IMG/VR virus record: IMGVR_UViG_3300020048_000104
Location: 9,084-73,083 of that record
Direction: 5' to 3' (one strand)
DNA: 64,000 bases
Origin: a virus
Lineage: Duplodnaviria; Caudoviricetes
Shown here: one piece after another, positions 2,857 to 31,900 of the stretch
How the letters are laid out: every line of letters begins with the position of its first letter
How positions within the stretch are numbered: position 1 is the first letter of the stretch
Made by a program: the position numbers and the translations under genes
The notes under the pieces: generated by a model
The model's input: only the letters and a program-made list of their open reading frames with translations
What the model was told of the DNA's origin: nothing
Databases searched by the model: none

Positions 2857-3555
2857 ATGTTACCATTACAAGACCTTTTTAGTCAATTAGATGAAGCATT
2901 GAATATCAATTCTTCTGATTCTGTATTTACAGATTTATACTACACTGATTTAATTAACGAGCAACGTTCTGTATGGATCAGGAACGAGTATAATAAGAAC
3001 CGTTCGATAGATCCTAATATTCAACAAACAATAGGTGATTTAGAATTAGAATTAGTTGATCCTGTTGCTTGTTGTGTTACTATACCAGGTACTTGTAAAG
3101 TATTAAGGTCTAAGGTAAAATTACCTAATACTATTGAGTTTTACAATTGGAAAGGTATCACATCTGTTGGTCCTGTTGATATTAGTAAGAAAAGATTTAC
3201 AATGATTGATTACGCTAGAGTTCCTTATATAGGTTCTGGTAGAGTAACTAAAAGAAATGTATATACTTTTCTATACGAACAATACTTATATGTAATAAGT
3301 GAAGATCCTGCTGTACTTACTTTAAGACATGTTAATGTAAGAGGATTGTTTGAAGATCCTACAGCTATTGGTGAATTTTGTACTTGTACAGGAATACCTT
3401 GCTGGAATCCTGCTGTAGATACATATCCTATTAATTTATGGATGTGGGCTTATGTTAAAGACATACTTGTACAAATGTTATTACAAAAGAAAACCATACC
3501 ATTAGATGAATCTAATGATAATAAAGATGAAGTGTTAGATGGAACAAAAAAGTAG
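2857..3555 (+). CDS. crAss-like structural protein, probable neck/ring (head-tail connector) protein
   Basis: Position immediately before the IHF-like and tail tubular genes matches crAss-like tail-module synteny; motif VRGLFEDP. Confidence 0.45.
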   Translation: MLPLQDLFSQLDEALNINSSDSVFTDLYYTDLINEQRSVWIRNEYNKNRSIDPNIQQTIGDLELELVDPVACCVTIPGTCKVLRSKVKLPNTIEFYNWKGITSVGPVDISKKRFTMIDYARVPYIGSGRVTKRNVYTFLYEQYLYVISEDPAVLTLRHVNVRGLFEDPTAIGEFCTCTGIPCWNPAVDTYPINLWMWAYVKDILVQMLLQKKTIPLDESNDNKDEVLDGTKK

Positions 3556-9603: not shown

Positions 9604-12600
9604 ATGCCTGGTTCTGATTTTGATAAACGTATTTATAGTTATGTAGTAAACACTATAAATGAATTAAAAGAAAGTGGAAGACTTCCTGAAGGAAAGAATC
9701 TTAATGCTGCTGGTATAGCTGCTCAGATAATTTTAGAAACTGGACACGGTAAATCTAAATTATCACAAGAAGCATATAACTACGGTGGTATAAAAGCAGA
9801 TTCTTCTTGGACAGGTGATACCTATACATCTAAGGATGGTAGTGTTTATCGTAAATATGAATCAGCAGAACAAGGACTAGCAGATCAGCTTAGTTTCTAT
9901 TTAGATAATCCTCGTTATGATAACGCAGGTGCTTTAGATGCAACTAACGCATCTGATTGGGCTAAAGCTATAAAGAAAGCAGGGTATGCTGAAGATCCTG
10001 ATTATGTAAAGAAATTAAATAGTATAAGTAGAAAGTTTGAAGATCCTACTTATCAAGATACTGAGAGTTCAGTAGAACCTGTAAACACAAGCTCTACTAA
10101 TTCTCAATATAAACCTTTAGAGAAAGTTAATGTAGGTACTGTTGATAATTATCAATTACCTAATATTGATTATTCTGTAACAGGAGAAAATACTAAAGTA
10201 GATAATACAATACCGTATAAACCAATGACTACACCTACTGTAAATACATCATTTACAGGACAAAGTAGTATGTTTAAATTAGGTGGTAATTTATTCCCTG
10301 ATGGTGGACCTTTAAACAAACCTTCTCAAGTATTTACATATCCTAATAGACCTGGTGTAAGATACGCTTTAGATGGAAATGGTAAATGGTTAGTAAATGT
10401 TCCTGATGAAAACAATAAAGGATGGATTCCTTTAGATGATCCTGATGGATCTAAAAGTAGAGAGTTGATGAAAAATGCAGAATCTGTAGATGATGTTGCT
10501 TATGACGAATCATTACTTATGAATCCTGATTATAGACATTTACCTACAACTACTGTAACAGCTGAAAAACCTACTGATTATTATAACACATTAATAAAAC
10601 CAACTATTCAATTTATGGATCCTACAGGAATAACTTCATGGGGAGATGTAAAAGAATCGTATGATAAGAATGGTTTGTTTTCTGGAGAAACAGCTTTTGA
10701 AATATTAGGAGCATTACCACTATTAGGTAAAATAGGGAAGTCTGGTAAGATATTAGGTCCTGCTTTTGAAACATTAGTGAAAGCAAATAAAACAATTAAT
10801 AAATTACCTGTATCAAATAAAACAAAAGAGGTATTATTTAAAACAGTAGGTAAAAGTTATGATAAGGTTAAAGATTATGATAATGTATCAGGTTCAATAA
10901 CAAAATCATTAAAAGATAATATTAAATATATTAATCCTTCTTCACAAAAAGTAAATAAAACAGCAGTGGATGCTTTTAATACATTAAATAAAACAGCTAA
11001 ATTAGCAAATAAAGCTCAGTTATTGGATGATACAGGTGTTGTGGATGAAGCTAAAGATGTATTAGTAGATGCTTTAGAGAATAAAACAGAATGGAATTAT
11101 ACTGATGATAGAACATTTAATTTTAAATTAGGAGGAAATATGAATAAATATTACGCAACAGGTGGTCCTATGGAAGGTATGCCTACAGACGGACAAGCAG
11201 GACAACTTACATCATTTGATGCAGGTGGTAAGCATGAAGAAAATCCTATGGGTGGAATACCACAAGGTATGAATCCTAATGGTCAACAGAATTTAGTAGA
11301 AGAAGGAGAAACAAAACTTAATGCTAAGAATTATATATTTTCAGATAGTTTAAAAATAGATAAAGATACAGCTAAAGAGTTCTATTTTCCTTCTAAGTAC
11401 GTAGGTAAAACATTTGCAGAAGTATCTAAATTAATGGAGCGACCTGATTCTCGTAGAAAACATGATTCTATAGAAGAGAATGCTAAGAAAAAGGATTTAG
11501 AAGCTTTGATGAGTGCTCAAGAAGAATTTAAAGCAAAGGATTTACAAAGAGATATGGAAAACATGATGGTAAAACATCCTGATTTCATGCAATCTATGTT
11601 AGCTCAACAAGCTCCTCAAATGCCTGAACAAGCACCTGTTGATCCTATGATGGCTCAAGATCCTATGATGCAACAAGGAATGCCTATGGAAGCACCTATG
11701 GCTAAAATGGGAGGTTATCAAAATCAAATGAACTTCGGAGGCTTTATGAATAAAGTTGGTCAAGTAGGTAAAAACTATGGACTAGCTTTAGCTGATAACG
11801 CTTTAGGTATGGTAGGAGCAAATAATGTAATTAAAGATTCTGATTATACAGGAGCTGGATCAGAGTTTGCTAAAGGTGCTCAGCAGTTTACAGGTGTTGT
11901 TAATAGAATAGGACAAGGTGTTGCAGCTGCTGCATTACCTGGTATTGGAGGTGCTTTAGTAGGAGGTGCTCAAAATGCTATGGGTGGTATAGGTGGTGAA
12001 AATACTACTATACAAAATGGTAGAGTTATGGAATGGGGAGGTGGTTTAAACACTTCTAATAAATATGGTAACTATTCAACAGGTGTAGGATTAGACAATC
12101 CTTATTTACAAGATAATGGTTTATCTAATAGTACATTACCTGTTGAAAAGAGTTTAACTATACCTTCTGTAGGATCATCTAATGTATCTGGACAAGGTGC
12201 TCCTGAAGCACAATCTTACGATCAATCATTAGCAAATGCGATAGGTACTTATGCTCCTGTTGCTTATAATATAGGACAAGGATTATTTGGTAAAGTAGAT
12301 AAATTAAGTGCTGATGATTATATTAATAAGGCTACTATAGAAAATTATAGAGAAAATATTAATCCTCAGTTACGTGCTTCTGATGAAGCATTTGCAGGTG
12401 CTAAAAAAGGATTAAGAAATGCTGGTGCTGGTAGTGGTGCATACATGGCTAATTTACAAGCTATGCATTCACAAGACCAAGCACAAAAAGCAGGTATTTA
12501 TGCTAATGCTGAGAATCAGTACGCTGGTCGTCAATTACAAATTGATCAAGCAAATGCATCTAGAGGGGATCAAGCCGCAGCGATGAGATTACAGATACAT

Positions 12601-12810
12601 GATTATAACATGAGAGCAAAAGCAGCTAAAGATACAATGTTACAAGAAGGATTAAAACAAACAGGTGATATTTCTAAAGCTAAAACATCTAATGAATTAG
12701 CTACAATGTACAACAATTTATACGCTCCTGATTTTAAAGATTTCGCTAGTTATAATAGTTATGCTGATATGTTAAAACAAAAAGCACAAGCTAAAAAGAA
12801 AAATAAGTAA
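9604..12810 (+). CDS. Virion cargo/ejection protein with N-terminal GH73 glucosaminidase (FlgJ-like muramidase) domain
   Basis: aa ~35-145 AAQIILETGHG...NYGGIKA...YRKYES...IKKAGYAEDPDYVKKL is GH73. The rest is low-complexity with repeated xxGG motifs and Gly/Ala-rich membrane-like helices. Confidence 0.75.
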   Translation: MPGSDFDKRIYSYVVNTINELKESGRLPEGKNLNAAGIAAQIILETGHGKSKLSQEAYNYGGIKADSSWTGDTYTSKDGSVYRKYESAEQGLADQLSFYLDNPRYDNAGALDATNASDWAKAIKKAGYAEDPDYVKKLNSISRKFEDPTYQDTESSVEPVNTSSTNSQYKPLEKVNVGTVDNYQLPNIDYSVTGENTKVDNTIPYKPMTTPTVNTSFTGQSSMFKLGGNLFPDGGPLNKPSQVFTYPNRPGVRYALDGNGKWLVNVPDENNKGWIPLDDPDGSKSRELMKNAESVDDVAYDESLLMNPDYRHLPTTTVTAEKPTDYYNTLIKPTIQFMDPTGITSWGDVKESYDKNGLFSGETAFEILGALPLLGKIGKSGKILGPAFETLVKANKTINKLPVSNKTKEVLFKTVGKSYDKVKDYDNVSGSITKSLKDNIKYINPSSQKVNKTAVDAFNTLNKTAKLANKAQLLDDTGVVDEAKDVLVDALENKTEWNYTDDRTFNFKLGGNMNKYYATGGPMEGMPTDGQAGQLTSFDAGGKHEENPMGGIPQGMNPNGQQNLVEEGETKLNAKNYIFSDSLKIDKDTAKEFYFPSKYVGKTFAEVSKLMERPDSRRKHDSIEENAKKKDLEALMSAQEEFKAKDLQRDMENMMVKHPDFMQSMLAQQAPQMPEQAPVDPMMAQDPMMQQGMPMEAPMAKMGGYQNQMNFGGFMNKVGQVGKNYGLALADNALGMVGANNVIKDSDYTGAGSEFAKGAQQFTGVVNRIGQGVAAAALPGIGGALVGGAQNAMGGIGGENTTIQNGRVMEWGGGLNTSNKYGNYSTGVGLDNPYLQDNGLSNSTLPVEKSLTIPSVGSSNVSGQGAPEAQSYDQSLANAIGTYAPVAYNIGQGLFGKVDKLSADDYINKATIENYRENINPQLRASDEAFAGAKKGLRNAGAGSGAYMANLQAMHSQDQAQKAGIYANAENQYAGRQLQIDQANASRGDQAAAMRLQIHDYNMRAKAAKDTMLQEGLKQTGDISKAKTSNELATMYNNLYAPDFKDFASYNSYADMLKQKAQAKKKNK

Positions 12811-12833: not shown

Positions 12834-15536
12834 ATGCCGATTAGTCCATATAGCACCCCTATACAGTTTGAATATAAACCATTAGGTTTAGAAGGTTTTG
12901 CGAAACCTCTTAGTGAGATGCAAACTCAATATGATGATACTTTAAATAAAGTAGATGCTTTAGATTTTGATATTCAAGCATTGTCTAAAGATGATCCTGC
13001 TGCAAAAGAGAAAATCAATGCTTTAATGGAGCAACGTAATCAGTTGCGTGATGAACTAATGAACACTAAGAATTTTAAACAAGGTGCTCGTAAAGTATTG
13101 GATTTGAATCGTCAATATACTAAAGATGAGGATATTCAATCTATGCAATCTAATGCTAAATCTTGGCAAGAATATGACAAACTTGAAAAAGAAAGATACT
13201 TAAAAGGAGAAATCAGTAGAGAAGAGTACGAATCTAATCGTGCTGTTAGAATGGGTGAGTATGCTGGTTATAAAGAAGGAAGTATTAACACTACTCCTTT
13301 GTCTAAAAATGAAGAAGATAATATTCGTAAAGAAACTAATGCGTTATTAAGTGCTGCTCCTGAACAATTAGAGTATATGTATAATGATTTAGGTATTGAT
13401 GCTACAACAGGTAAAAAACTTAAAGAAATTATAGAGAATAAAGAAATAAGTAAAAATCAAATTGCTCAAGAAGTAAGTAAAATAATTCTTACTTCTGATA
13501 AGTACAAGGAATTTTATAATTCTCGTGCTGATTTAGCATGGAGAAGTTATAAGTTAGCAGGAAAAGAAGAAGATATTGCTACTAGTACATATCAAGCAGA
13601 TATTGCTAATACTACTAATAAGATAACAGCTGCTCAATCAGAATTAGATAGACTTACTAAATTAAAAGAGTCTGGTAAATATTCAGGTGAAGGTCTTGAA
13701 AATATTGAAAAAGGTATCACTCAATATACTACTACATTAGAAAGTTTAAATAATAGAATAGCTAATGTACAAAGTGCTTTAGAAACAGGAAATGTTAATC
13801 CTCAAGTAGCTAAAAGATTATTTGAAGATCAGTTCCTTGAAGGTAAAGTAAATCAATTAGTTACTGCTAATGCTGATTTATATGATTATCGTAATACTGA
13901 AATCACAGACCAATATACAACTATTGATGATGGAGGAACTGGAGATGGTTCAGGTATTAATGGTTCATCAGATGCAGCTGCTTTTATACCTAATACTTTT
14001 TCAGGAACTATTACAAATGAAAATTTACAAGACGTTACTAAAAAATTACGTAAAGGTGTAGATGATGTATATGATGAATTAGATTTTAGGACTAGAGCAG
14101 ATGGTACATCTGTTGGTATATTTAATCAATTGTTCGGTAATCAAGACAGAGGTTCTAAAGCAGCTACAACTAATGCTATATATCAAGCAATTAGAGAAAC
14201 AAAAACAGAAGGTGGTAACGCTGTAACATTTGCATCAAAACTAGCAGAAAAAGGAATTGGAGGGTATGACCAAAAGAAACTAGATGTTATTTATAATAAA
14301 TTTAGCTCACCTGACGGATTAACTACTTTATCTGAATCTGTTGGTAAAATTCAAAGAGATATAGCTAGAATAGAAGAAGTTAAAGGTATGCAACGAAATG
14401 CTACTGAGCAAATTTTAAAAAGTAATGATTTTAAAAATAATGAAGATTTAAAATATTCTGGGTATAATTATAATAACGCACCTGAAAATTTAGCAATAAA
14501 AGAAAAACACATGGATGCAGCATCTAAATCACCTTTGTTTATGAATTTTGGTGAAAAAGCAGATGTTATAATTAATTCAAAAAATAGTACCAGTGAAGAA
14601 AAATTAATAGCTAAAGCGTATAAAGTAGCTTATGAGAGAGATCCTAAATATTTTAAAGTAACTAATGAGGATATAGCTAAAGTTGCTGGTTATAATAATG
14701 TAGAAGATGCTATACTTAAAGGTTTTAAATTTCCTACATCTCGTATTAATGATTATATCAATACTAAAATGAACGATGCTTTAAAAACATCAACTTATTT
14801 ATCTACATTGAGTATTACTGGTGATACAAAAGAAGCTAAATTGCTTAGAGCAACAATTAATGATCGTGTAACAGATGTGGTTAAAACAGTAGGTATAGAT
14901 GGATTAGTTCCTGCTTTTGCAGATGGATGGTCTGAAGAAGAAGGTCTATTTGAAGAAGTTGATAATAAACCTACTTTTGTAGGAGAAGTAGTAGGTAAGT
15001 CTACTGTTTCTAAAAGTGATAGAAATATATATATTACTACAACTGTTAAAAATAAAAAAACAGGAGCTACTAAAACAATACATACATTATTTCCTGAAAA
15101 CGATAAATTAATAGAAAAAGAAATATATAAAAACATATATGAAACTTCTAATCCTGATGAAGCATTAGGTAAACGTAATAGAAATATGGCAGGATCAGGA
15201 ATGTTTGATATATCTCATCCTGATAATCCTTTAACAAGTAGCCAAACGAAATCATTACAGCCGACTGATGAAAAACCAATTATGATATATTCTTATAATA
15301 TACAAGGTTTTGGAGATGCTGGTAAGATTAGAATATTTATGAACTCTAAACAAAAATCTGGAGAAAAAGGAAAAGCTCATAATTATTACACAGCTAAAAG
15401 ATATGATCCTGCTACATTAACTTGGGTTCCTATTAATATAGATGAAAAAGGTAATATTGTTTTCAGTGGTGGTAAATTATTACAGACAGAAGATCCTAAT
15501 GGTATAAAATCTAAGTTAGGTAGTCTTTACTTTTAA
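12834..15536 (+). CDS. Virion cargo/ejection protein (helical, crAss type)
   Basis: 900 aa with an N-terminal coiled coil; lies between the GH73 cargo gene and the giant RNAP genes as in crAss-like layouts. Confidence 0.55.
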   Translation: MPISPYSTPIQFEYKPLGLEGFAKPLSEMQTQYDDTLNKVDALDFDIQALSKDDPAAKEKINALMEQRNQLRDELMNTKNFKQGARKVLDLNRQYTKDEDIQSMQSNAKSWQEYDKLEKERYLKGEISREEYESNRAVRMGEYAGYKEGSINTTPLSKNEEDNIRKETNALLSAAPEQLEYMYNDLGIDATTGKKLKEIIENKEISKNQIAQEVSKIILTSDKYKEFYNSRADLAWRSYKLAGKEEDIATSTYQADIANTTNKITAAQSELDRLTKLKESGKYSGEGLENIEKGITQYTTTLESLNNRIANVQSALETGNVNPQVAKRLFEDQFLEGKVNQLVTANADLYDYRNTEITDQYTTIDDGGTGDGSGINGSSDAAAFIPNTFSGTITNENLQDVTKKLRKGVDDVYDELDFRTRADGTSVGIFNQLFGNQDRGSKAATTNAIYQAIRETKTEGGNAVTFASKLAEKGIGGYDQKKLDVIYNKFSSPDGLTTLSESVGKIQRDIARIEEVKGMQRNATEQILKSNDFKNNEDLKYSGYNYNNAPENLAIKEKHMDAASKSPLFMNFGEKADVIINSKNSTSEEKLIAKAYKVAYERDPKYFKVTNEDIAKVAGYNNVEDAILKGFKFPTSRINDYINTKMNDALKTSTYLSTLSITGDTKEAKLLRATINDRVTDVVKTVGIDGLVPAFADGWSEEEGLFEEVDNKPTFVGEVVGKSTVSKSDRNIYITTTVKNKKTGATKTIHTLFPENDKLIEKEIYKNIYETSNPDEALGKRNRNMAGSGMFDISHPDNPLTSSQTKSLQPTDEKPIMIYSYNIQGFGDAGKIRIFMNSKQKSGEKGKAHNYYTAKRYDPATLTWVPINIDEKGNIVFSGGKLLQTEDPNGIKSKLGSLYF

Positions 15537-21500: not shown

Positions 21501-23245
21501 TCTATCCTACTATGTCAGATAAGACTACAATGATGGTAGTTAATGCTTTAGCTAGAAAGATAGAAGTAAATGATGATTTTGAATTAGCTGATGACAAAGT
21601 TGTTGAATTATATGATGCTATAGTTATGCCTGAAATACAACGTATGCTATCAGAAAAGTCTGATAACATTGCAGGATATAAACCAAACTTCTTCTATTTT
21701 ATTCCTTCTTTAAATGAAGTCACTGTTACTATCAATGGTAAAGAAAAAACAATAGTAGAGCATGTATTAAGTTCTAATGGTGAAATTACAGATGATTTAA
21801 GAAATATTATTCTTGAAGAATTGAAAACAACTTTTCAACAATTAACAGAAGATAAAATTGATGAGTGGGTAGAATTAGGTGTAGGTGTTAATAATGCGTT
21901 CTTAAACAGTCCTTACATGGATAACGTAGCAGAAGGATTGACTAAACCTAAAGCTGATGATAAAGTAAGTCAGAAAGTAAGATACGCAGCTACTGACTAT
22001 GTATTTAATTATTTAATAGCAAATGCAGAGATGTTCAAAGTATCTATTGGAGATCCTGCTTTATACGCAAAATTTAAAGATGGTAACACTGTTAAGCAAA
22101 ATCTGGAATCGACTTTTGGAAATATTGGAAAAAGATTGGCAGGAGATATAGCTCCTGGTATTGAATTAGCTGATTCTGAAAAGAACGAGTATTATCAAAT
22201 ATTTATGAATGATACAACAACACAAAGTAAAGCGTATCTTAATGAAATATTTGATAAAGTATCTGAAAACACTAAAAAAGAATATAGTAAAATTAAAGGT
22301 TCTGATGCTCAAGAGTACACTACTTGGCAAGAGCATTTATATGTATTGAATAAATTAGGTAGAATATCTAAAAAGCAACATACTGATTTTAGTGATAAAT
22401 TACGAAAAGGAGAAGAGTTAGATTTCAATGAGTTGAATCTTGTACTACAACCTATGAAGCCTGTTTACGTAGGAAATAGATTAGAGAAATTAGCTGATCG
22501 TAGAATCTATATCAAGTCATCTTCTTTTCCTTTGATTCCTCAACTTACAAAAGGATTACAAATTGATAAGTTGCGTGTACAAATGGAACAGTTTGAAAGA
22601 AGTAAAAACAGTACAGTTCGAGCATCTTTCAATACTGCTAATAAAGTAGGTAGTGTTGTACAAGCATTAGATGTATTTGATACTAATGGTAACGTATTAG
22701 ATGTTAACATCACAGATGCTAATGTATTGAAATTACAACGTAAGAACTTTAGGATTCAACAAGACGTACCTTATGACCATGAGAAATCAGCTGTTAACAT
22801 AGGTACTCAGGAACGTAAATTGTTATTCAATAATATCCTTAGTATTTCTAATTTTGACTATAACGGTAAAAAGCTAACAGGTGCTGAACTAAAATCAAAG
22901 TATGATGATTTGTATAAAAAAATGTTTGAGCATAAGCGTACATTGTTAGAAAAGGAATTAGGATTACTTGAAGATGTATCTGAAGAAATTAATCCTAAAG
23001 ACTTTTTATCTATTCGAGAAAGTAGTACATTTACAGCATTGGAAGAAATGGAGAAAGCAAGTGAAGCTATCAAATCTCCTGTTGCTAAATCTAAACTTAA
23101 AAACGAATTACAAGATAAGATGGGTACTAAGCAATTTGCAAGAGCTCAATATGTTAATAAGAATTTTGATAAAATAATAGAGAAATTAATGAATGCTAAA
23201 GTAAATGTATTCTTTGATGAAAACATAGATAAAAAATGTGAATAA
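15581..23245 (+). CDS. Giant virion protein carrying the N-terminal (beta-like) part of the virion RNA polymerase
   Basis: 2554 aa. The C-terminal third has crAss vRNAP-like motifs (KRLAGDIAPG, DAQEYTT, KPVYVG, IYIKSSSFPLIPQ, FRIQQDVP, IGTQERKLLF). The N-terminal part has Gly/Ala-rich ejection-protein helices. Confidence 0.7.
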   Translation: MLQPKKSTFLQDLKKHEDQLIKDGKIDDPKVLEEQLGGIPERVSSIDVLYPNKSPEEFENFEEYMPTQTVRSGQYSTEQLSNIRAENQSNWEQAGNASARFALNIVPSIVSGFASMLDIPGYFDAEHAATNDLVNTVEEWKQQVNQEIAPIYLENPDTPMDLGDFAWWMDRGEGLAESVASFLVQGAAMGAGVGALVKGANAFNNASKLAKLVGASAKTQSKVGTVANIFVEKAGTLTNAIALNQSEAVLEATSVYNDTKTYWLDKGYSMEDAKKQAAIGASTTMNMNRANILLNITSAYMFMTPMKLARKLVDPVSRANTLKSLVAEGSQEALEELINHSASQAGKAHGKGEEYGFNDAIKDMKSAEGIEAALLGAFGGIAQTGGSIAFKHSKYGTGSAVNKETGERESAYTQQTNRYEKQQKVIEDLKASGVKSFDVLNNLAYTMKLGQDMADAQNNNDIDKYNQLQAELFETKALTAFQSGTTQILEDLIRSSAGEDGETGISKEQVNEAISNLRELEAVYNNYENFENVDDLFFNRANKIRTERILRSQKANQIETKMNLQATAEQIAKKYKFKVDKEVVYKKEGVQTGTETLTTEQPITFSLENLGDNPGTTEDNRKVYDAFVEELSNTEVYKNAQEQDLTVEETENLLNGLNEKFVSLKSKEGQEKAKVEKAEKAIESERMSKILRDDFEDLDELRKMAAETKDDNVRRKAEKKIKTIETNRAIEAQQKKDDTVFNKYSTAIAKTDSSPEGKAEFEKLKAEIAKLKNLSPALKQRLADSIDARQRNMDAGMMSDEKVTKPNPSDENTVDLSELITNSKLPEDFVTDDVEENIEAEIADAVKEVYEKDRKPQLNEKGDLEYDFDRSEQGHDKGAFLARDFVQNEFSGKVTREDIDNELNEVNPDILNPDTLNEGTKITIKVDDDYDGDVYVGDTKEKMPWSERKKQIGNNPDTMRDEIPMVVVDNTGKKLFHIHDVNWINETNVYGDIESDRDALRAIRDKVLASGTSGVETSITSKSAGILFTTAKGESVLLKDGMPDPNLQLVVGKDNAFTDNSVDRESLLNKKIRDGQLYAIIPVGKEKIAIPLQRTQLKNNPEIYNTIVKAIEAYLDPENNQEFIEGVAKVGSKLDVSDLSNLSKFISQFVYLYPLEKNESLVDVVSRSSEKFNRQNSIISITGNSIEFCKPGISNSWGSISTNTPANMLPALLKRLKYVLSDVKTHAKKDKNTGKVITTDVAVVNAEGQVVSKPYREFIGENFKSNVLSTKINTKDGVKYVYSIQQNITFDTSFAPVQKKPVIATTTQSTNTQEADVESEIVDNALKQQLDNDVKQVVEDTQTYPTEKLINDLADLKAGNLKTFGESAEDAPDQKEVNYTIYIFENALRIRKEANNTTDLSQLINNDRKITLDSDDVSNDDDTDFQLIPETNVKNAVNDAISEMTVKGISLRQQNSLIGYIGSKIIKASIDKLQETGKSKVSINDIFDEVENDLKKDYQTYVDNILPNKAGRVKAILDDFAKVKQLTIAKIELMNTGTLTLKENNDAAEIESDDITTSVLSDEEMDMSDEASGGLENVLHSDDWTFTLDSKSTASANLKKFLTFVEDKEDGLTKFNELGFPEIIEFDVVYNTLHELLAGLPANYDKMLATLEAHTNKFPWLQTVIERLDDAPDQIRNEFVSDMAKHAITMKFILWNKLQNGKYVLFTKDANSASTQKRLLTTWNYNITDGNNPYSILKVDDSGTYVYDRTKIEPLVALAKEWENATVDNLPTNDELLKWLNAFGITVSEETLNELRLGKFKNKGTLTFQRLFTAHNGLVKVLATQIDKYSEKTKFDDTKIINDTVIQSLATMEASNAENIFSNSFNAGGKTIYTFSNNKYVINRFRDLKEDAQLRADLENVPFIKGSLWLNELNNNPAFNEHFGIDYLSLEAIKKEFTPSKDNRKLNNLTEDEHEVIKLAMFFNNYNNRQVSFFYPTMSDKTTMMVVNALARKIEVNDDFELADDKVVELYDAIVMPEIQRMLSEKSDNIAGYKPNFFYFIPSLNEVTVTINGKEKTIVEHVLSSNGEITDDLRNIILEELKTTFQQLTEDKIDEWVELGVGVNNAFLNSPYMDNVAEGLTKPKADDKVSQKVRYAATDYVFNYLIANAEMFKVSIGDPALYAKFKDGNTVKQNLESTFGNIGKRLAGDIAPGIELADSEKNEYYQIFMNDTTTQSKAYLNEIFDKVSENTKKEYSKIKGSDAQEYTTWQEHLYVLNKLGRISKKQHTDFSDKLRKGEELDFNELNLVLQPMKPVYVGNRLEKLADRRIYIKSSSFPLIPQLTKGLQIDKLRVQMEQFERSKNSTVRASFNTANKVGSVVQALDVFDTNGNVLDVNITDANVLKLQRKNFRIQQDVPYDHEKSAVNIGTQERKLLFNNILSISNFDYNGKKLTGAELKSKYDDLYKKMFEHKRTLLEKELGLLEDVSEEINPKDFLSIRESSTFTALEEMEKASEAIKSPVAKSKLKNELQDKMGTKQFARAQYVNKNFDKIIEKLMNAKVNVFFDENIDKKCE

Positions 23246-23718
23246 TGGAAAAATTATTAAATGAAGTAGAGATCAAAACATTGAATAAGTTTGGTCAGTT
23301 TGAATTAACAGCAAGTCAGACATATTTATTTTTAGCTAACAGAATGAAAACATTATCTTGTTTTGGAGCTGAAAAATTATTTAATGGTGAGTCAGATGGT
23401 GAAAGAGATCATTATAGAAAAATAGAAAAATTCATGAATAATTTAGGATGTGAACTTTCTGTTGAAGCATTAGATAAAGCAGAACATGATATTTCTAATA
23501 TCAAAGAAGCGTTAGAACTAGCTTATGTAATGGAAAAAGATTTACTAGATGCTTATGAAACAGCTGCTAGAAATTCAGAATTATCTTTAAAAGTTGTACT
23601 TTTGTTACAAAAATTTACAACACATCAGGTATCTGCTGTAGGTGAATTTAGTGACTTGTTAGCACGAATAGAACTTACTAATGATATGTTATTGTTTGAT
23701 AAAGAGTTAGGTAACTAA
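23245..23718 (+). CDS. Ferritin (FtnA-like four-helix bundle)
   Basis: Aligns by eye along its length to bacterial ferritin: ELTASQTY (E17/Y24), ERDH (E50/H53), AYVME (E94), HQ (Q127), FDKEL C-terminus. Its start overlaps the upstream stop (TAATG). Confidence 0.85.
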   Translation: MEKLLNEVEIKTLNKFGQFELTASQTYLFLANRMKTLSCFGAEKLFNGESDGERDHYRKIEKFMNNLGCELSVEALDKAEHDISNIKEALELAYVMEKDLLDAYETAARNSELSLKVVLLLQKFTTHQVSAVGEFSDLLARIELTNDMLLFDKELGN

Positions 23719-23728
23719 ATAGTATAAT

Positions 23729-26700
23729 ATGGCTTGTGAATATTTTGTAAACGGTGAATGGATTTCTGAAAATCAATTTAAAGAAATTTTAATTGGTGAT
23801 GAATCAGGAGGATTATTAGATGCTCTTATTAATTCAGGTAAAGTAGAAATGAAAGGATTTCCTACTGTCGATGCTCCTGTACGTGAAACATTAAGAAATA
23901 ACACAATACCTGTACAAAAATTACAGGCTATGTTAATTAAAGAAGTGAAGAGTAGAAAAGGTTATCCTATTAATATTCTTTCTGCTCTTGAATTAAATAA
24001 GGAAGGTACTGATTTCAAAATACCACTATGGTCAAGTAACTATGCTGATAAATTTGAAAGTTTATTAACATCAATTGTCAATAACAATGTCATTAAGCAA
24101 AAGTTCAATGGACATTCATATATCCTCGGATCTGAAGAAGGTTTTACTTTAAAAGAAGGTGACGATGCAGAAAATGAATTAAGTCGCTCAGGGATTGTCT
24201 ATACTGATTCATTTGATCCTAAAATAGGATTACAACCTATGCGAATAGGAGAAAATGGAGAAATATTACCTGCGCAGATTATGATTCCTTTTAATTTTAA
24301 AAACAAGGATCAATATGGTAATAAATTGAAATTGAAAGATTTTATGATTCCTGGTACTAACAAAATAGACTTATCTAAATTAGATCCTAAGATGTTAAAA
24401 CTGTTTGGGTTCCGTATTCCTACACAAGGACACAACTCAATGTCTACTGTAGAAATAGTAGGATTCCTACCAGAAGCATCAGGAGATTTAGTTTTAGCAC
24501 CTAAAGATTTTACTGTTCAGATGGGATCGGATTTTGACGTTGATAAATTATACACGTATATGTATAATGTACAACTTAAAGAAGGTAAATTAACTACAGA
24601 GTTTTCTGAAGATAACATAATTGAAAATGCACAAAACGCAATACTTGATATTCATCACTCAGTGCTTACTAATCCTGATAGTAATATAGTTAGTGCTATA
24701 TTAAAACCTGATGGGTTTGGAGATTTTAAAGATTTATCATCTGATGTTGTAGATAATAGGACAACAGCAGGAACATTAAAACAAACATTGACTATCTTAT
24801 CTGATTCGTATCAAAAAAAGAAATTTATATCAGGTACAGCAGGTAAAGACGGATGTTTAGGTTATGGTACAAAAGTATTAATGTATGATGGTAGATTTAA
24901 AGAAGTTCAAGATGTCATAGTAGGAGATCAATTAATGGGTATAGATAGTACACCTAGAAATGTAACATCTTTAAAAAGAGGGGTTGAACAAATGTACATA
25001 GTTCAGCAAAAAAGAGGTATTAATTATCGTGTAAACGAATCTCATATATTGTCATTGAAAGAACATATTCCTGCTTTATACAGTAAACCAGTAATCAATA
25101 ATGTTAGAGTTATTGATAAATCTAAACTATTGAGAGAAAAACAAATTATAACTAATAACATAAAAGTAAGTGATTATTTATTAGCAAATAATGATTTTAA
25201 ACGTAGAACAAAAGGTTATAAAAATACAAGTATTGAATTTCCTGATACTGATACTCCTATATCTCCTTATTATTTAGGACTGTGGTTAGGTGATGGTGTT
25301 ACTAAAGACATAAAAGAAATAGCAACTATTGATGAACTTATAGAAAATTATTTAGCTCTTACATTTGGTATTAGTAGTGTGTATGGACCAAATAACATAT
25401 CTAAACGAGTATTTGATAATGGTTTAAATGATAATTTTAAAAAAATATTTAATGTATCTAAGTGTGGTTTGTTACCAGGTTGTAAACATATACCTGATAG
25501 TTATTTATATACATCAAAAGAAAACAGATTATCTTTATTAGCAGGTTTAATTGATAGTGATGGTCATTATTGTAAAATAAATAAACAATATACATTTTCA
25601 AATATTAATGAGAAACTAATAAATCAAGTTGCTTTTCTTACAAGAAGTCTTGGTTTTTATACAGCTATTTATAGAAAAGAAGCTCAAATTTCAAAAAGAG
25701 GATTGAATGAGCAAGTATCTTTTAAAGTTAATTTTGTAGCAACTTATGATATACCTGTATTATTAGAAAGAAAAAAACAACTCTCTAATTCAGTATTCAA
25801 AAACAGATTATATACAGGAATTACTTTGAAAAAAGATGTTGTGGATAATTATTACGGATTTACTTTAGATGGGGATCATTTATTTATGTTAGAAGATTTT
25901 ACAGTAACTCACAATACTGGATCATTCTCATTAGATGCTACTTTTAATGCTATTATTCAAGGTAAGGATTTATTCTTTTTTAAACCTGAAACAGTAGGTT
26001 TAGATAAGTTTGGTAAGTATTCAAGAGATGAACAAATAGCAATGACTAGAGATACTTTTACATTAGGTAATTTATCATCTGATGGAGATTTGTCTAATCC
26101 TTATAATTTAAAATCTCAAAAGATACTTAATTCTGTAAATGGAGATATTAATAAATTATCAAAAGAACAAAGAGCTAAATTGAAATTCAAATCGGATGTG
26201 ATACAAGGATTACAATCATCTGCTGTGGATAATGCTAATGAGGAAATATTAGATAAAATTAATATTACTTCTCAAACATTTGATGCTATTCGTGGAATGG
26301 CTCAATTAGGATTTGAAGAATCTGAAATCGTAGGATTGATGACTCAAGATATTATGTGGGAATATGTTGATTTTGTTAAATCAAGAAAATCATCATTAAA
26401 AGAAGAATTTGCATCTGGAGATTCTTATGAAGATTTCTTATCTATAAAGAAAAAACAATATGATCCTAATGGTGATTTTGATAAATTAACACAAGAACAA
26501 ATCAATACATTAAGTTCTAAGTCAGGTACTCAATTAATTGATGTCCTTATCAGTAAGCAGTTAGTAGATGTAAAAGAAGGTAGTAGTACACCATTGTCTA
26601 ATTTAGAACAATTTGCTATACTTGATAAATTCATAAAATTTAGTGAAGTAGGTAAAGCTATTAAAACAGTACAGTCTACTATCAATACTGAATCATCAGG

Positions 26701-28936
26701 ACTTCCTAAAAACTTATTAGAAACTAATGCTAAGATAGAACAAATTAAAAGACTTCCTTTAAGTCCTATTGTTGGAGCTACTAAGCTATTAGGAGAGTTT
26801 GATAATAATAATAATTTAGTTAATCCTACTACTATAAATGGATTTGCTGCTTATCACGGTGCTATATTAGCAGATAAGATGTATGCTAAATATTTCCCAT
26901 ATACTACAAATGGATTCACTACTCAATACAATGAGTTATTAGAACATATCGCAGGAGAAGAAGTATCTGATTCTAAACGAGTAGATATTAAAATCAATGC
27001 GTTTAAAGAAATGCGTTCTTATTTATTTACAAGTGGTGCTTTAAATATTTACGATGGTAATGCTGAAGGTGTTCAAAGAAGACTATTTATTGATATTCCT
27101 GGTGAACATCAATCACTATCATCTATACTAAAAACCATAAAAGGACAAAATAAACAATGGTTTAATAACAATCAGTTTTTGAATAAGTTATTGTTTGAGC
27201 CTAGAGTTGATGGTAAAGTATCAAGAGTTGATTTCCAAGCAGCGACTGGAGAAAACTATGATGAACAAGCTATTTATTTAGGATTCATGCAGTTGTTTCA
27301 ATTAGACACACAAGTATTAGATACTAAATTTAATGGAGAAGATTATACACCTGCTAGACTAGCACACGAATTGGTAATGTATGCTTACTTAGAAGGAGGT
27401 TCTCAAGGATCTAAATCATTCATGAAATACATTCCTATTGAGTATTTAAAAAGTCAACGATTTGGAGAAGGATTACAATCATTAAGTAGTTTTGACTACA
27501 ATTCTATTTTTGGAGGTTCTGGAGTAGTAGCGAAGTATGTCAATCCTTCTCGTTTTACAGTACAATATTTTCAAAACAATCCTAATAATGCTAAGAAATT
27601 AACATTAGAAGATATAGATACCAATCATAAAAGCATTACAGCAGTTGATAATTTCAAATTAAAACCTGATGCTATTGCTGGTAATATGGTATCGTACACG
27701 AATGAATTAGGTGAGAAAACAAATACTCAAACAGGGTTTGTTGCTATATATGATTCTAAATTAAAAAGTAAATACGCATTGTATCAATATGATAATGTGG
27801 AACATGTATATAAACGTATTCCTGTTGTATCAGGTGCTTATGGATTTAAGCAATATAACATCAACGGTGATATTACAAAACCTGTACAAACAGCAAATGA
27901 GATAGTTGCACCAAATACAATAAATGTAAAACAACCATCAACACCATCTATGAATCCTGTTCCTGTACAACCTGTACAAGGCTACAATCCTAACATAGTG
28001 AATAATAATAATCCTATTGAGAAAGTAGGAGGTTTAGAGATCAATCGTAAATTAGGTAGTGATGCAGAAATAATAACAGACTTCTTTTTACAGATTGCTA
28101 ATAATCCTGCTGTTCCTAAGTATTATCAGGAATTAGCAAAGGAGTATTATAAATTAAAATTACCTCATGGTATTAAATTACAAGGAACAGATAAAGGAAA
28201 AGGATCTTATAATGCTGGTACTAATGTTTTAAAATTAAATAAAGAAGAGTTAAACGTAGAAGGTGCCTTAGAAACAGCTATTACTATATTGCATGAATCT
28301 ACTCATATTTTTACAAGTGCTGTAATAAAGAATTATGGTAATTTAAAAGGAGAACAGAAAGAAGCTGTTACACGTTTGAACGGTTTGATGAATAAGTATA
28401 TAGCTTTTCTTAATAAATCTGGTAAAGGACCTCAAAGAGAAGCATTTAGACAAGCATATAATGATTGGAAGAATGCAAAAGAATCAGGTGATAATACAAT
28501 GATTCCTAGTCCTGAGTTTACAAAAGATAATCTAAATGAGTTTTATGGTTCTATTAAATTAGAAGAGTTTGTAGCTATGGCACAAACATCTAAAGAGTTC
28601 CAGCAAATACTTAATAATGTAATAGATTCTGATGGTAAATCATTCCTTAGTAAAATGATGGAGCAAATAGGAAAGATTCTAAAATCAATAGGTATAAACC
28701 TTAATAAAAATTCATTACTGTATAGTACATTAGAAGGTGTTCAAAACTTAATTGATGTGAATCAGAAGAATGTAGAATCGTCTACAGAAACAGAACCTGC
28801 TCAGCAACTTACTGATTTAGTAAAACCAAAATTTAATCCTTTTGATGGAAGAAATCTTAATCCTAATGATTTGATTGATGAACAATTGTTACCTTTACAG
28901 GAAGATTTAGAAGAATTTAAACGAATGTGTAAATAA
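23729..28936 (+). CDS. Virion RNA polymerase catalytic (beta-prime-like) subunit with intein and C-terminal zincin-like domain
   Basis: FRIPTQG plus catalytic DFDVD (24530-24544), intein at aa 376-729 and HESTH (HExxH) at 28292-28306; about 1381 aa after splicing. Confidence 0.88.
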   Translation: MACEYFVNGEWISENQFKEILIGDESGGLLDALINSGKVEMKGFPTVDAPVRETLRNNTIPVQKLQAMLIKEVKSRKGYPINILSALELNKEGTDFKIPLWSSNYADKFESLLTSIVNNNVIKQKFNGHSYILGSEEGFTLKEGDDAENELSRSGIVYTDSFDPKIGLQPMRIGENGEILPAQIMIPFNFKNKDQYGNKLKLKDFMIPGTNKIDLSKLDPKMLKLFGFRIPTQGHNSMSTVEIVGFLPEASGDLVLAPKDFTVQMGSDFDVDKLYTYMYNVQLKEGKLTTEFSEDNIIENAQNAILDIHHSVLTNPDSNIVSAILKPDGFGDFKDLSSDVVDNRTTAGTLKQTLTILSDSYQKKKFISGTAGKDGCLGYGTKVLMYDGRFKEVQDVIVGDQLMGIDSTPRNVTSLKRGVEQMYIVQQKRGINYRVNESHILSLKEHIPALYSKPVINNVRVIDKSKLLREKQIITNNIKVSDYLLANNDFKRRTKGYKNTSIEFPDTDTPISPYYLGLWLGDGVTKDIKEIATIDELIENYLALTFGISSVYGPNNISKRVFDNGLNDNFKKIFNVSKCGLLPGCKHIPDSYLYTSKENRLSLLAGLIDSDGHYCKINKQYTFSNINEKLINQVAFLTRSLGFYTAIYRKEAQISKRGLNEQVSFKVNFVATYDIPVLLERKKQLSNSVFKNRLYTGITLKKDVVDNYYGFTLDGDHLFMLEDFTVTHNTGSFSLDATFNAIIQGKDLFFFKPETVGLDKFGKYSRDEQIAMTRDTFTLGNLSSDGDLSNPYNLKSQKILNSVNGDINKLSKEQRAKLKFKSDVIQGLQSSAVDNANEEILDKINITSQTFDAIRGMAQLGFEESEIVGLMTQDIMWEYVDFVKSRKSSLKEEFASGDSYEDFLSIKKKQYDPNGDFDKLTQEQINTLSSKSGTQLIDVLISKQLVDVKEGSSTPLSNLEQFAILDKFIKFSEVGKAIKTVQSTINTESSGLPKNLLETNAKIEQIKRLPLSPIVGATKLLGEFDNNNNLVNPTTINGFAAYHGAILADKMYAKYFPYTTNGFTTQYNELLEHIAGEEVSDSKRVDIKINAFKEMRSYLFTSGALNIYDGNAEGVQRRLFIDIPGEHQSLSSILKTIKGQNKQWFNNNQFLNKLLFEPRVDGKVSRVDFQAATGENYDEQAIYLGFMQLFQLDTQVLDTKFNGEDYTPARLAHELVMYAYLEGGSQGSKSFMKYIPIEYLKSQRFGEGLQSLSSFDYNSIFGGSGVVAKYVNPSRFTVQYFQNNPNNAKKLTLEDIDTNHKSITAVDNFKLKPDAIAGNMVSYTNELGEKTNTQTGFVAIYDSKLKSKYALYQYDNVEHVYKRIPVVSGAYGFKQYNINGDITKPVQTANEIVAPNTINVKQPSTPSMNPVPVQPVQGYNPNIVNNNNPIEKVGGLEINRKLGSDAEIITDFFLQIANNPAVPKYYQELAKEYYKLKLPHGIKLQGTDKGKGSYNAGTNVLKLNKEELNVEGALETAITILHESTHIFTSAVIKNYGNLKGEQKEAVTRLNGLMNKYIAFLNKSGKGPQREAFRQAYNDWKNAKESGDNTMIPSPEFTKDNLNEFYGSIKLEEFVAMAQTSKEFQQILNNVIDSDGKSFLSKMMEQIGKILKSIGINLNKNSLLYSTLEGVQNLIDVNQKNVESSTETEPAQQLTDLVKPKFNPFDGRNLNPNDLIDEQLLPLQEDLEEFKRMCK
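24854..25915 (+). mobile_element. Intein with LAGLIDADG homing endonuclease in the vRNAP gene
   Basis: Starts CLGYGTKVLMYDG and ends DHLFMLEDFTVTHN followed by Thr; internal YYLGLWLGDG and LLAGLIDSDG blocks; 354 aa. Confidence 0.92.
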
Positions 28937-28938
28937 TT

Positions 28939-31900
28939 ATGGCAAACAAAAACTGTCCTTTAGAAAGCAATACTGAGTGGGTTGAAATGAAACGTCAATT
29001 AGGGTATGATTTAGCTGCATATACTTATGTAAAAAGAAAATGGGAAGTACCTCAACTTACTAATGAAAAAGAATTATCTAAGCGAATAGGATTTACTAAC
29101 AAAACAGTTAGTGAAAACAAATATTACGAGTTAAGTATTAAACTAGGTGGTTTTAATGAATTACGTAAAAATGCTCATTTCTTAAAGACTGTTAAAAAGT
29201 ATAGTAAGAATGGTAGAATGGTTCGTGATGTAGAATTACAGATGAATTATTTATCTATTGCTGAAGAACAAGCTAGAAGAATGATGGCAGCAAACAATCC
29301 TATTTACGAAGTTCCTGCTGATATTGCTAGAAAAGAAGAAGAGAAAAAAGCAAAAAAAGAAACACCTTCTCAAGTAAATCCTGGGTATTATTTAAAACCA
29401 GGAGATAGTAACTATACTGTTAGAAATGGTGAAGTTGTTAATTTAGCAGATGCTAAAACAATGGATGATGTAGATTATCTTATTCCTACTGCTAAAGATC
29501 CTATTAAAGATGCTGAGCAAGTACGTAAAAGAAAACTACAAAAAGAGATTGCTGTACTTACAACTAAAAGTAATAATGCAAAAGATTCTTTTGTGGTACG
29601 TTCTTTATTGACACAAATAGAATCATTAAAAGCTATTTTAGAAAAAGCAGATGAGCGTATTGGAGCAACAGAAAATATAGAAAAATATGATAATGTATTA
29701 CAATTTGCAGATTCTCAATTAAATGAAATAGAAGGAATATTAAGTGATGATGCAATATCTTCTGAGAATATTTTATACATAGAACGTATATTAAACTTAT
29801 GGGAGAAAGCAAGTAATTTTAAAGGAGATCCTTCTGAGCATATTATTTTAGATGAGTTTGAATTTCAATCAGATGAAATAAAAAAACTATTTAGAAATAT
29901 AGGAGCACGAGTAGAAGATTATCAAAGTAGATTAGGTGTTATACGTGAAGAACACGTGGTAGCTTTCATGCGTGAATATTCTAATAATAAAACTCTTACT
30001 AAAGAAGAAATATTTGCTGATTTTGCAGATAGTGGTACAATGAGTGCTTTGACATTGAATCTAGGTAGATTGGATGATCCTATTTTAAAAGTAATATTTT
30101 CAGCTGTTGAAGAAATGCATGTTAACGCTAGATTTGAAATCAATGAAGTATTCAAAGATATTGATTTAGTAACAAGTAAAGCATTACCTAAATTAAAAAG
30201 ATTATCAGGTAATAAAAATCCTTGGAGATTCTATGAACAAGTAACTAAAGATGGTTTGGGTACAGGTAAAATAGTACATAGATTTTCAGACGATTTCTTT
30301 AAGACAATTAAGGATTTGCGATACAAGGCATTTTATATGACTGATAAAAAAGGTAAATCTACTTCTAAAGCATCTGATGTGGAAAGATACTATAAGTGGT
30401 TGGAGGAAAACACTATTACTTTTGATGCTCGTAAATTATTTGATGATAGTCATTATGATGAAGTTGAATTTGATGATAAGTATTTATTTACTAATCAAAA
30501 ATATTCAGATGCTGAAAAACAAGCACATATTAATCAACTTAAAGCACAATTAGGAGAAAAAGGATATACTCAATATTTTGAATCAATTAGTAAGAAAATA
30601 GAATTATTTAAACGTGATAGAGCTGTTGCGTGGGGTAGCATTGTTAATGATTCTACTTTATCAAAAGAACAACAGGATGCTTTATTTACTGAATGGAATA
30701 TAGAAAATTCACCTTTTTGGAGTTCTGAATTAATAGAAAATCCTACAATGCGTAAAAAGCCAGGAGGTAAAGGATTTTATAAAATTGATAGTTCTCGTAA
30801 ATACACAGAACAAATACCATTAAGAACTACTAAATCTGGTAAAACTACTAAATGGTATGATGGAAATTTTGAAAAAATTGAAGCAGATGAAGATCTATTA
30901 GCATATTATAATGTAATGTTGAATACATTAAAAGATATGAGATCTTTACTTCCTGCTAACAAACGTGACTCAATGGGTATTACAGACATTCCTAAAATGA
31001 AACAGTCATTAGCTGATATGTTTGGAGAAAAAGGAATGAGGATGGGTGTTAAACCTTTTTGGGAAAGACTTCAAGAAATGTCTAAAACTACTGATTTAGC
31101 TAATACTACAACAGCAGATATAGATCCTCTTACTGGAGAACGTATAAATGAACAATCTTTAAGATACATTGAAGATACTACTGAAAAAGTAAATTCTATA
31201 GTACAAACTAAAATAATTCAACACAAGCAAAATACAGGAACTGTTCCTTCATCAGCATTGATACAAAAGTTTAAAGATGAGGCTAGAAATGAAGTATCAC
31301 AAGAATACTCATTTGATTTGACTAAACTGCTAAAAGCATATTCTACAATGGCATTAGAATATAAACATAAGTCTTTAATAGAACCTCAAATAAAAATGCT
31401 AGAAAAAGCATTTAAAAGTAAAAAAGAAATAATTACTAATAACTCAAGCAAACCTGTTGTTAAAATCAATAGTGACGGTACTGAAACAATACAAAGTAAA
31501 GAAGGATTAGCAAATGCTAAAAGTGCATTGGAGTTCTATTTAGATACTAAGATGTGGGGAACAGGAGGTCGTAAAGTAGAAGGTGTGAGTAAAAAGAAAA
31601 CTTATACTATTTCTGAAAAGAAAAAGAAAGCTGATTTAGAAGCGTTGTATGAAGCTACTTCTGATAGTAAAGAACAAGAACATTTACAATCAGAAATAGA
31701 TAAACTAGGAGGATTTACATCAGCTTCTGGTGTTGGTGATATGTTATTAAAATTAATGACTTATAAAGGGTTAGCTTATAACTTAGGTTCTGCTTTTAGT
31801 AACGTTGGTTTTGGTATTATTTCTAACTTGAATGAAGCATCTGATGGTAGAAACTATAATATGGCTCAAATGCGACATGCTTATTTACTTACTACTAACT

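Follow-up and report, generated by a model that had tools for sequence, protein, structure and literature searches.

Cysteines at the facing tips of the giant polymerase-associated proteins of a crAss-like phage, and a possible head-to-tail disulfide thread

Three giant proteins, P0001, P0003 and P0004, are encoded in a 64,000-nucleotide stretch of a caudoviricete virus genome (the window; positions 9,084 to 73,083 of IMG/VR record IMGVR_UViG_3300020048_000104), and each of them carries a cysteine at every end that faces the next chain of the series and almost none elsewhere. Among their relatives the count of such tip cysteines is twice the number of breaks between the chains. On their homology, the three proteins appear to be the RNA-polymerase cargo block, the counterpart of gp67-gp66-gp65 of phage phi14:2. 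We consider it rather likely, judging from these sequences and from an analogous bond in another phage, that the separate chains are tied by head-to-tail interchain disulfides into a pseudo-polyprotein. The feature that is specific to the window is a polymerase split by a cassette that bears such a cysteine clasp. No phages are more abundant in the human gut than the crassviruses, yet how they pack and inject some 700 kDa of polymerase-associated protein has still to be explained; as late as 2026 a paper on phage N4 regarded the relations among the three polymerase-associated proteins of the crassviruses as unresolved.

The three genes belong to a run of giant genes on the plus strand that extends from 9.6 to 33.1 kb of the window, whose G+C content is 29%. 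P0001 (15581..23245; 2554 amino acids) joins a gp67-like part to the N-terminal half of the virion RNA polymerase, as far as its Connector loop; it ends ..DKKCE*, where Cys2553 (codon TGT, 23237-23239) is the penultimate residue, and its N-terminal tip has no cysteine. P0003 (23729..28936; 1735 amino acids), the C-terminal catalytic half of the polymerase, starts MACEYFVNGEW, with Cys3 (codon TGT, 23735-23737), and ends ..FKRMCK*, with Cys1734 (codon 28928..28930) again penultimate. P0004 (28939..33102; 1387 amino acids), a protein of the gp65 or RNA polymerase-associated type, starts MANKNCPL; its sole cysteine, Cys6 (codon 28954-28956), lies in the motif C-P-x(5)-E-W, and its C-terminal tip is without cysteine. 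The reading frames and termini that an earlier note on this DNA had given for the three giant proteins are confirmed from the sequence.

Away from the tips, P0001 has Cys1189 and P0003 has cysteines at 376, 579, 585 and 615. The latter four are explained because all of them fall inside an intein, a point that the earlier note had missed, and the mature P0003 has cysteine solely at residue 3 and at its penultimate position. Cys1189 (19145-19147, plus strand), the only non-tip cysteine of mature P0001, stands in place of a nearly invariant glycine (consensus ..IEFG-x-PG..) and is not found in a 93%-identical relative; its origin is either a substitution of recent date or an error in the sequence. 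The mature proteins together have 5 cysteines in 5,321 residues, and 4 of these 5 fall within the 24 junction-facing tip positions (binomial P 2e-9). In the rest of the phage proteome cysteine mostly accounts for 0.5-2.6% of the residues, with a few proteins that have none and a maximum of 4.4%. The tip-cysteine observation is thus real and far from chance. What does not stand is the supposition of the earlier note that the partners at junction 1, between P0001 and P0003, are adjacent; a ferritin-like gene of 157 amino acids (P0002, 23245..23718, plus strand), which it had overlooked, lies between them.

The tip cysteines come and go with the chain ends. Phage phi14:2, which has three chains, has exactly four cysteines in them, all at facing tips (g067 ..TIC*; g066 MAC.. 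and ..ECK*; g065 MSC..). Flavobacterium phage FPSV-S29 has two chains, a 4419-residue fusion with one cysteine, at position 4418, and a following protein that starts MAC. In phage crAss001 the sole cysteine of gp47 is at 2339 of 2341, gp50 has Cys5 and Cys2404, and the sole cysteine of gp49 is at residue 5; the rule is satisfied there even though gp47 is encoded on the strand opposite to that of gp50 and gp49. A nucleotide-level artefact of coupled genes is excluded because of this opposite-strand partner and because a whole gene separates the partners of junction 1 in the window. Relatives in which the polymerase is unsplit have a single cysteine, at the C-terminal tip (P0065-67, P0148 and P0176-177), or that cysteine and one internal one (P0178), and fusions of the polymerase with the gp65-type protein retain only that of the N-terminal tip. 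Finally, 34 of the 43 complete polyprotein fusions that reach or exceed 4,500 amino acids have no cysteine whatsoever, one of them being 7,385 residues long; all 43 together have 31 in 227,688 residues, and 21 of these 31 belong to a single outlier. It had been proposed in the earlier note to ask whether the tip cysteines vanish where the genes are fused, and the answer is a clear yes: most full polyproteins are free of them and the partial fusions keep only those of their unfused ends. The fused polyproteins contain the same three modules as the window, in one reading frame, and this shows that the three proteins function as one unit. Such polyproteins are assumed to be cleaved into parts (Yutin et al., as cited by Drobysheva et al.); the sequences suggest the opposite relation, in which separate chains are re-joined, since the fused forms lack cysteine.

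Conservation of the terminal cysteines in orthologues, on which the earlier note had made its idea depend, is found down to 24-30% identity for the tip pairs, and the rule spans hundreds of proteins at 24-90% identity. The 120 listed relatives of P0001 (41-93% identity, 1,536-4,261 amino acids and nearly all longer than 2,300) include 117 with a cysteine among the last three residues, which is the sole cysteine in 81, and none has one near its N-terminus; C2553 is invariant in the alignment of this family. Exactly two cysteines, one at residue 3-4 and the other at the last-but-one or last-but-two residue, are present in 27 of 39 P0003-type proteins, the rest being truncated calls, carriers of an intein or proteins that have a single additional cysteine. 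In the corresponding alignment conservation is complete at C3 and reaches at least 90% at C1734. Close relatives of P0004 have a cysteine at residues 3-6 in 19 of 20 cases, and in 18 it is the only one. An exhaustive profile-free search for gp65-type proteins, which yielded 149 representatives at 50% clustering or less, contained 76 stand-alone proteins of 1,100-1,800 amino acids; 73 of these have a cysteine within their first 10 residues (sole cysteine in 49). The outer ends of the chain, that is to say the N-terminus of the P0001 family and the C-terminus of the P0004 family, never bear one.

The immediate surroundings of these residues are less uniform. At the C-terminal tips the cysteine occurs as CE, CD, CK, CGK or CN, or is itself the last residue. 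The N-terminal tips of the relatives fall into a few recurring motif types, such as C-P-N-K..E-W, C-x-Y-x-Y-x-G and C-x-x-x-P-x-x-x-G, and the two junctions of the window carry N-terminal motifs of different types, which would fit an address-like specificity. A subset of the stand-alone gp65-type proteins (e.g., P0192, P0195, P0201, P0221 and P0287) has a second cysteine about 90-130 residues before the C-terminus; it recurs in several clusters and is absent from P0004 of the window. The weakest adherence to the rule that we observed is in phage cr56_1, where a fused 4461-residue protein keeps the cysteine of its C-terminal tip and has seven internal ones. The giant genes of this phage (gp38-gp41), read with translation table 11, each contain 7-38 in-frame stops, as expected for a stop-codon-recoded crassvirus.

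Comparison with its relatives identifies junction 1 as a derived break in the Connector loop, a surface loop of the polymerase. P0001 at its end and P0003 at its start match contiguous parts of phi14:2 g066 (tblastn, E 3e-12 and 1e-16), which is annotated as 'Catalytic RNA polymerase subunit' and is the virion RNA polymerase of Drobysheva et al. In tblastn they also match one continuous gene, that of the 4419-residue protein of FPSV-S29, and P0003 matches many crassviruses; PHROG 16227 matches the two halves at adjacent profile positions (2749-2990 and 2995-3244). A megablast search with 22000-30000 of the window against cultured phages gave no match. The homology and the sequence DFDVD (P0003 residues 268-272, at 24530-24544, plus strand), the DxDxD motif of the second double-psi barrel, place the enzyme with the phi14:2 gp66-type polymerases, from whose single-chain form it departs as a two-chain variant, broken inside the equivalent of the Connector. 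The break corresponds approximately to residues 1167-1174 of gp66, in the middle of the Connector domain (1095-1238) and between the two double-psi barrels, the same place at which the beta and beta-prime subunits of cellular polymerases are divided. The earlier note had rightly located the first junction inside the polymerase and had recognized the extra terminal segments, which the unsplit relatives lack; their lengths, given as about 75 and 55 residues, are actually 92 and 59.

The unsplit relatives have at this site a variable loop of 5-44 amino acids, e.g., TDSGN. In the clade of the window the loop is replaced by a cassette that consists of a tail module, the ferritin-like gene and a head module. 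The tail is the last 92 residues of P0001 (2463-2554; 22967..23242, plus strand) and ends ..FFDENIDKKCE, and the head is the first 59 residues of P0003 (23729..23905, plus strand), which opens with the motif MAC-x-Y-x-V-x-G-x-W. The start of the ferritin-like gene overlaps the stop of P0001 (TAATG) and the head begins 10 nt past the ferritin stop. The consensus of the tail ends ..FFDEN-x-x-KKC-[DE] and that of the head starts MAC-[EQ]-Y-x-V-x-G-x-W; the tail is kept by every one of the 23 split forms aligned. Relatives with no more than about 40% identity in the flanking genes also have the complete cassette, including the ferritin-like gene. A tree of the polymerase segment flanking the junction has the unsplit state as ancestral, with the subclade of the window nested among unsplit forms (support 0.96), and therefore gain, loss or exchange of the cassette has happened more than once; the six cassette changes counted on this tree are a number inflated by three truncated proteins. 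At each change the cysteine pair accompanies the cassette, and the newly made chain ends carry a new pair of cysteines. As to the origin of the modules, a hidden Markov model (HMM) of the head also matches the N-terminus of P0226, a fusion of polymerase and gp65-type protein from another lineage (i-E 0.0024, in a small local database), and an HMM of the tail matched none of the other proteins collected in this analysis outside its own family. The idea that the tail is a copy of junction 2, between P0003 and P0004, is unsupported beyond a short common ending, ..EFK(K/R)-x-C.

The blocks g067-g066-g065 of phi14:2 and gp47-gp50-gp49 of crAss001 follow the cargo genes with homologous proteins in the same succession as in the window, and they share with it the DxDxD motif and the restriction of cysteine to the tips. 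The window differs from both in that a fusion joins its gp67-like part to the N-terminal half of the polymerase, in that the polymerase is broken in the Connector loop by the tail-ferritin-head cassette, and in that a zincin-type HExxH is located on the catalytic half. A solved example of a comparable cysteine pair comes from cyanophage A4, in whose pre-ejectosome, determined by cryo-electron microscopy, Cys1715 of gp27 and Cys5 of gp26 form a disulfide next to a docking helix (PMC12002296). In the record of Anabaena phage A-4L these two residues are the sole cysteines of the 1717-residue gp27 and the 1114-residue gp26. As in the window, consecutive giant ejection proteins set a single C-terminal tip cysteine against a single N-terminal one; unlike the window, A4 belongs to a different phage family, has no polymerase in its chain and has one link rather than two or more. 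BLASTP comparison of A-4L gp26-gp29 with the proteins of the window gave nothing significant (E >0.3; best E for gp26 and gp27 0.58-2.3). The earlier note knew of no description of such a linkage. The A4 bond is one, published for a phage that is not crAss-like; its authors describe it for that phage alone and state neither a general rule nor any behaviour on fusion (PMC12002296). The tip cysteines are not mentioned in the preprint text of the phi14:2 polymerase paper or in the crAss001 atlas (PMC10172136), and in the literature on crassvirus cargo with cysteine or disulfide we found no description of the tip-cysteine rule. Disulfide-linked ejection proteins are thus already known from A4; from the sequences and by analogy with that phage, we infer that they may extend, as a rule, to a whole order of phages.

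How such a system could operate may be sketched as follows. Tail and head modules would probably dock first, so that the correct cysteines meet, and the C-terminal tip cysteine of each chain would then form an interchain disulfide with the N-terminal tip cysteine of the next. The result would be one linear pseudo-polyprotein in the order P0001-P0003-P0004, with free, cysteine-less outer ends, packed at a 1:1:1 ratio, and could be drawn through the narrow tail in one set order. Ejection of the cargo is thought to need its partial unfolding (crAss001 atlas, PMC10172136). A cross-link only a few residues from the chain ends would form almost no branch and could pass the channel nearly like a peptide bond, whereas internal cysteines would be selected against, as they could form blocking cross-links and hinder partial unfolding; both the placement at the tips and the purge of internal cysteines would then follow because internal cross-links would block the unfolding in ejection. 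Inside the cell, reduction in the cytoplasm would then undo the links. The reading of the earlier note, in which docking terminal modules chain the ejection proteins and a reassembly of the polymerase halves would depend on the link, is in part supported by the comparison of relatives and by the A4 structure. Intermolecular disulfides are known elsewhere in crAss001 virions, many of them in tail and portal-vertex proteins (PMC10172136), and the termini of gp66 are accessible, because they are disordered in the crystallised protein. If this scheme is true, the cargo proteins enter the cell as a single covalently joined thread, in a set order, and come apart once reduced. The fused forms would then be seen in the opposite way to the usual one, with the separate chains imitating the polyprotein, and the extreme avoidance of cysteine, to zero in more than 7,000 residues, would be explained. 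It would also mean that small natural clasp modules allow an enzyme to be split in a loop and re-joined.

Several facts weigh against such a thread. The crAss001 maps do not resolve the cargo proteins (PMC10172136), and the only bond of this kind to have been seen directly is that of A4, which is not a crAss-like phage. The gut hosts are anaerobic, with a reducing cytoplasm, and disulfides of purified virions could form after lysis. The distance of the tip cysteine from the chain end is not constant, being 0-2 residues in most cases and 8 in crAss001 gp50, and a minority of the relatives have one or more internal cysteines, of which cr56_1 gp39 has seven. Given the lack of sequence similarity, the A4 precedent is only an analogy.

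The logic of paired tips demands that the tips meet and does not dictate the chemistry by which they are held. They could share a metal ion, with acidic neighbours or the chain termini as further ligands, or be joined by a thioether, a thioester or an enzyme-made ligation, and the anaerobic hosts and the iron-handling ferritin-like gene inside junction 1 of this clade would both suit an arrangement of that sort. We nevertheless regard a link other than a disulfide as unlikely: a usual metal site would require more than the single cysteine of each tip, the residues beside this cysteine include no other conserved ligand, we identified no candidate ligase or transferase, and the only solved pair of this kind, that of A4, is a disulfide (PMC12002296). 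It is quite unlikely, too, that each tip cysteine tethers its protein to some third component of the virion, be it the portal barrel, an inner capsid protein or another cargo protein. The many intermolecular disulfides in the tail and portal-vertex proteins of crAss001 (PMC10172136) and a cargo location that is not resolved within the capsid leave room for this idea; yet the cysteine-free state of 34 of the 43 full polyproteins implies that packaging needs no tether, cysteines occur only at chain breaks and always on both of the new ends, the outer chain ends never have one, and the two upstream cargo proteins have none to pair with.

There are two further alternatives. Junction 1 might not be a true protein break, if an intron or a split intein restored a single chain and the cysteines belonged to the splicing. 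P0003 does hold a classical intein, the 92- and 59-residue modules resemble split-intein halves in size, and the cassette shares with split inteins and mobile introns the interruption of an essential gene at a tolerant site and a presence or absence that varies among close relatives. It differs from them in having no intron RNA, no Hint fold and no splicing residues, so that two chains are expected. No Rfam intron family, of group I or group II, is found in 22700-24100 at E up to 1, and the interval is coding throughout, as three tightly packed and conserved open reading frames. Neither tail nor head has a Pfam Hint match, the first residue of the tail is L, I, V, T or R, the last residue of the head is not a conserved asparagine, and the cysteines are at the outer tips of the modules and not at extein boundaries as splicing needs. 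A spliced junction is in our view very improbable. Hardly credible at all is an origin by chance, or as a by-product of general cysteine depletion combined with nucleotide signals for coupled translation. The genes are indeed tightly coupled, by the TAATG overlap and by 2-nt and 10-nt spacers, and an 8-nt direct repeat, TGTGAATA, at 23237-23244 and 23735-23742, flanks the ferritin-like gene. The probability calculated for the window and the hundreds of proteins that follow the rule at 24-90% identity both oppose this origin, the rule holds with an opposite-strand partner and with variable spacing from the start and stop codons, and the repeat merely encodes Cys-Glu on both tips, where other residues follow the cysteine across the clade. 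Nor can the repeat be read as the target-site duplication of a recent ferritin insertion, by which one Cys-Glu codon pair would have been doubled; relatives of 37-92% identity retain the split together with the tail and the MAC head, and a fresh duplication is also contradicted by those other residues and by the ferritin-like gene being in place at about 40% identity of its flanks. When 22900-29100 was searched for direct repeats, all the matches were AT-rich and of low identity. The reading that we prefer to all of these is that of chains linked by disulfides.

The ferritin-like protein encoded within the cassette exceeds the cut-off of Pfam PF00210 (47.2 bits against 24.5), and its best PDB ferritin has an E value of 2e-10. 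In the alignment with the PDB ferritin 8ir0 the ferroxidase-site positions are kept (Glu, Tyr, Glu-x-x-His, Glu and Gln), and the protein may accordingly be classed, from its predicted four-helix-bundle domain and these ligand positions, as a putative ferritin. Relatives whose flanking genes are about 40% identical have a ferritin gene of 157-160 amino acids at the same place, and a tblastn search of about 50,000 cultured-phage records gave no match. Candidate roles are those of a packaged cargo (cf. the ferritin-like proteins in encapsulins), a moron or a partner in the chemistry of the clasp. To pursue the last of these further is a long shot: tail and head might form an address pair, distinct from the pair at junction 2, which would impose one order of assembly, and the ferroxidase chemistry of the ferritin might oxidise the clasp disulfides in or near the capsid. 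If this were true, the ferritin-closed clasp would be a phage-encoded, iron-driven route to specific protein-protein disulfides in a reducing anaerobic host.

The intein of P0003 occupies residues 376-730 (24854..25918, plus strand), about 100 residues downstream of DFDVD in the catalytic half. It matches Pfam PF05203, PF05204 and PF14528, all above cut-off, and contains a LAGLIDADG homing endonuclease. Its boundaries are G|CLGYG...VTHN|TGSF, with a Cys1 start, a ..THN end and threonine as the +1 residue. The element is cleanly absent from the 92%-identical P0024, in which the +1 residue is valine, and the same site is occupied in P0030. With its Hint and endonuclease domains, Cys1, C-terminal His-Asn, +1 nucleophile and absence from a near-identical allele, it is a class 1 intein. 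Most relatives of P0003 have, just ahead of the clasp at the C-terminus of this half, a helicase module (PIF1 / AAA_30 / UvrD_C), about 480 amino acids long in P0024 and larger in others, at a site that corresponds to about 28770 of the window; P0003 of the window is without it, though P0024 is 92% identical elsewhere. The HExxH of the catalytic half (P0003 residues 1522-1526; 28292-28306, plus strand) has H1522, E1523 and H1526 invariant in the family alignment, and P0004 has no such motif; in the phi14:2 polymerase paper the zincin-like domain is placed in gp65 (Drobysheva et al.).

Upstream of the chain and outside it, the run of giant genes includes two proteins of the cargo type, both on the plus strand and both devoid of cysteine. 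The first (9604..12810; 1068 amino acids) combines a glucosaminidase with the crAss cargo-protein-1 domain (Pfam PF25725, crAss_CARG1, E 2.1e-27; PF01832, E 4.5e-23), and the second (12834..15536) has 900 amino acids. Mass-spectrometry data place the cargo orthologues in the virion for phi14:2 and crAss001 only. As in the Crassvirales cargo set, the CARG1-domain protein of the window is located in a gene block downstream of the tail genes.

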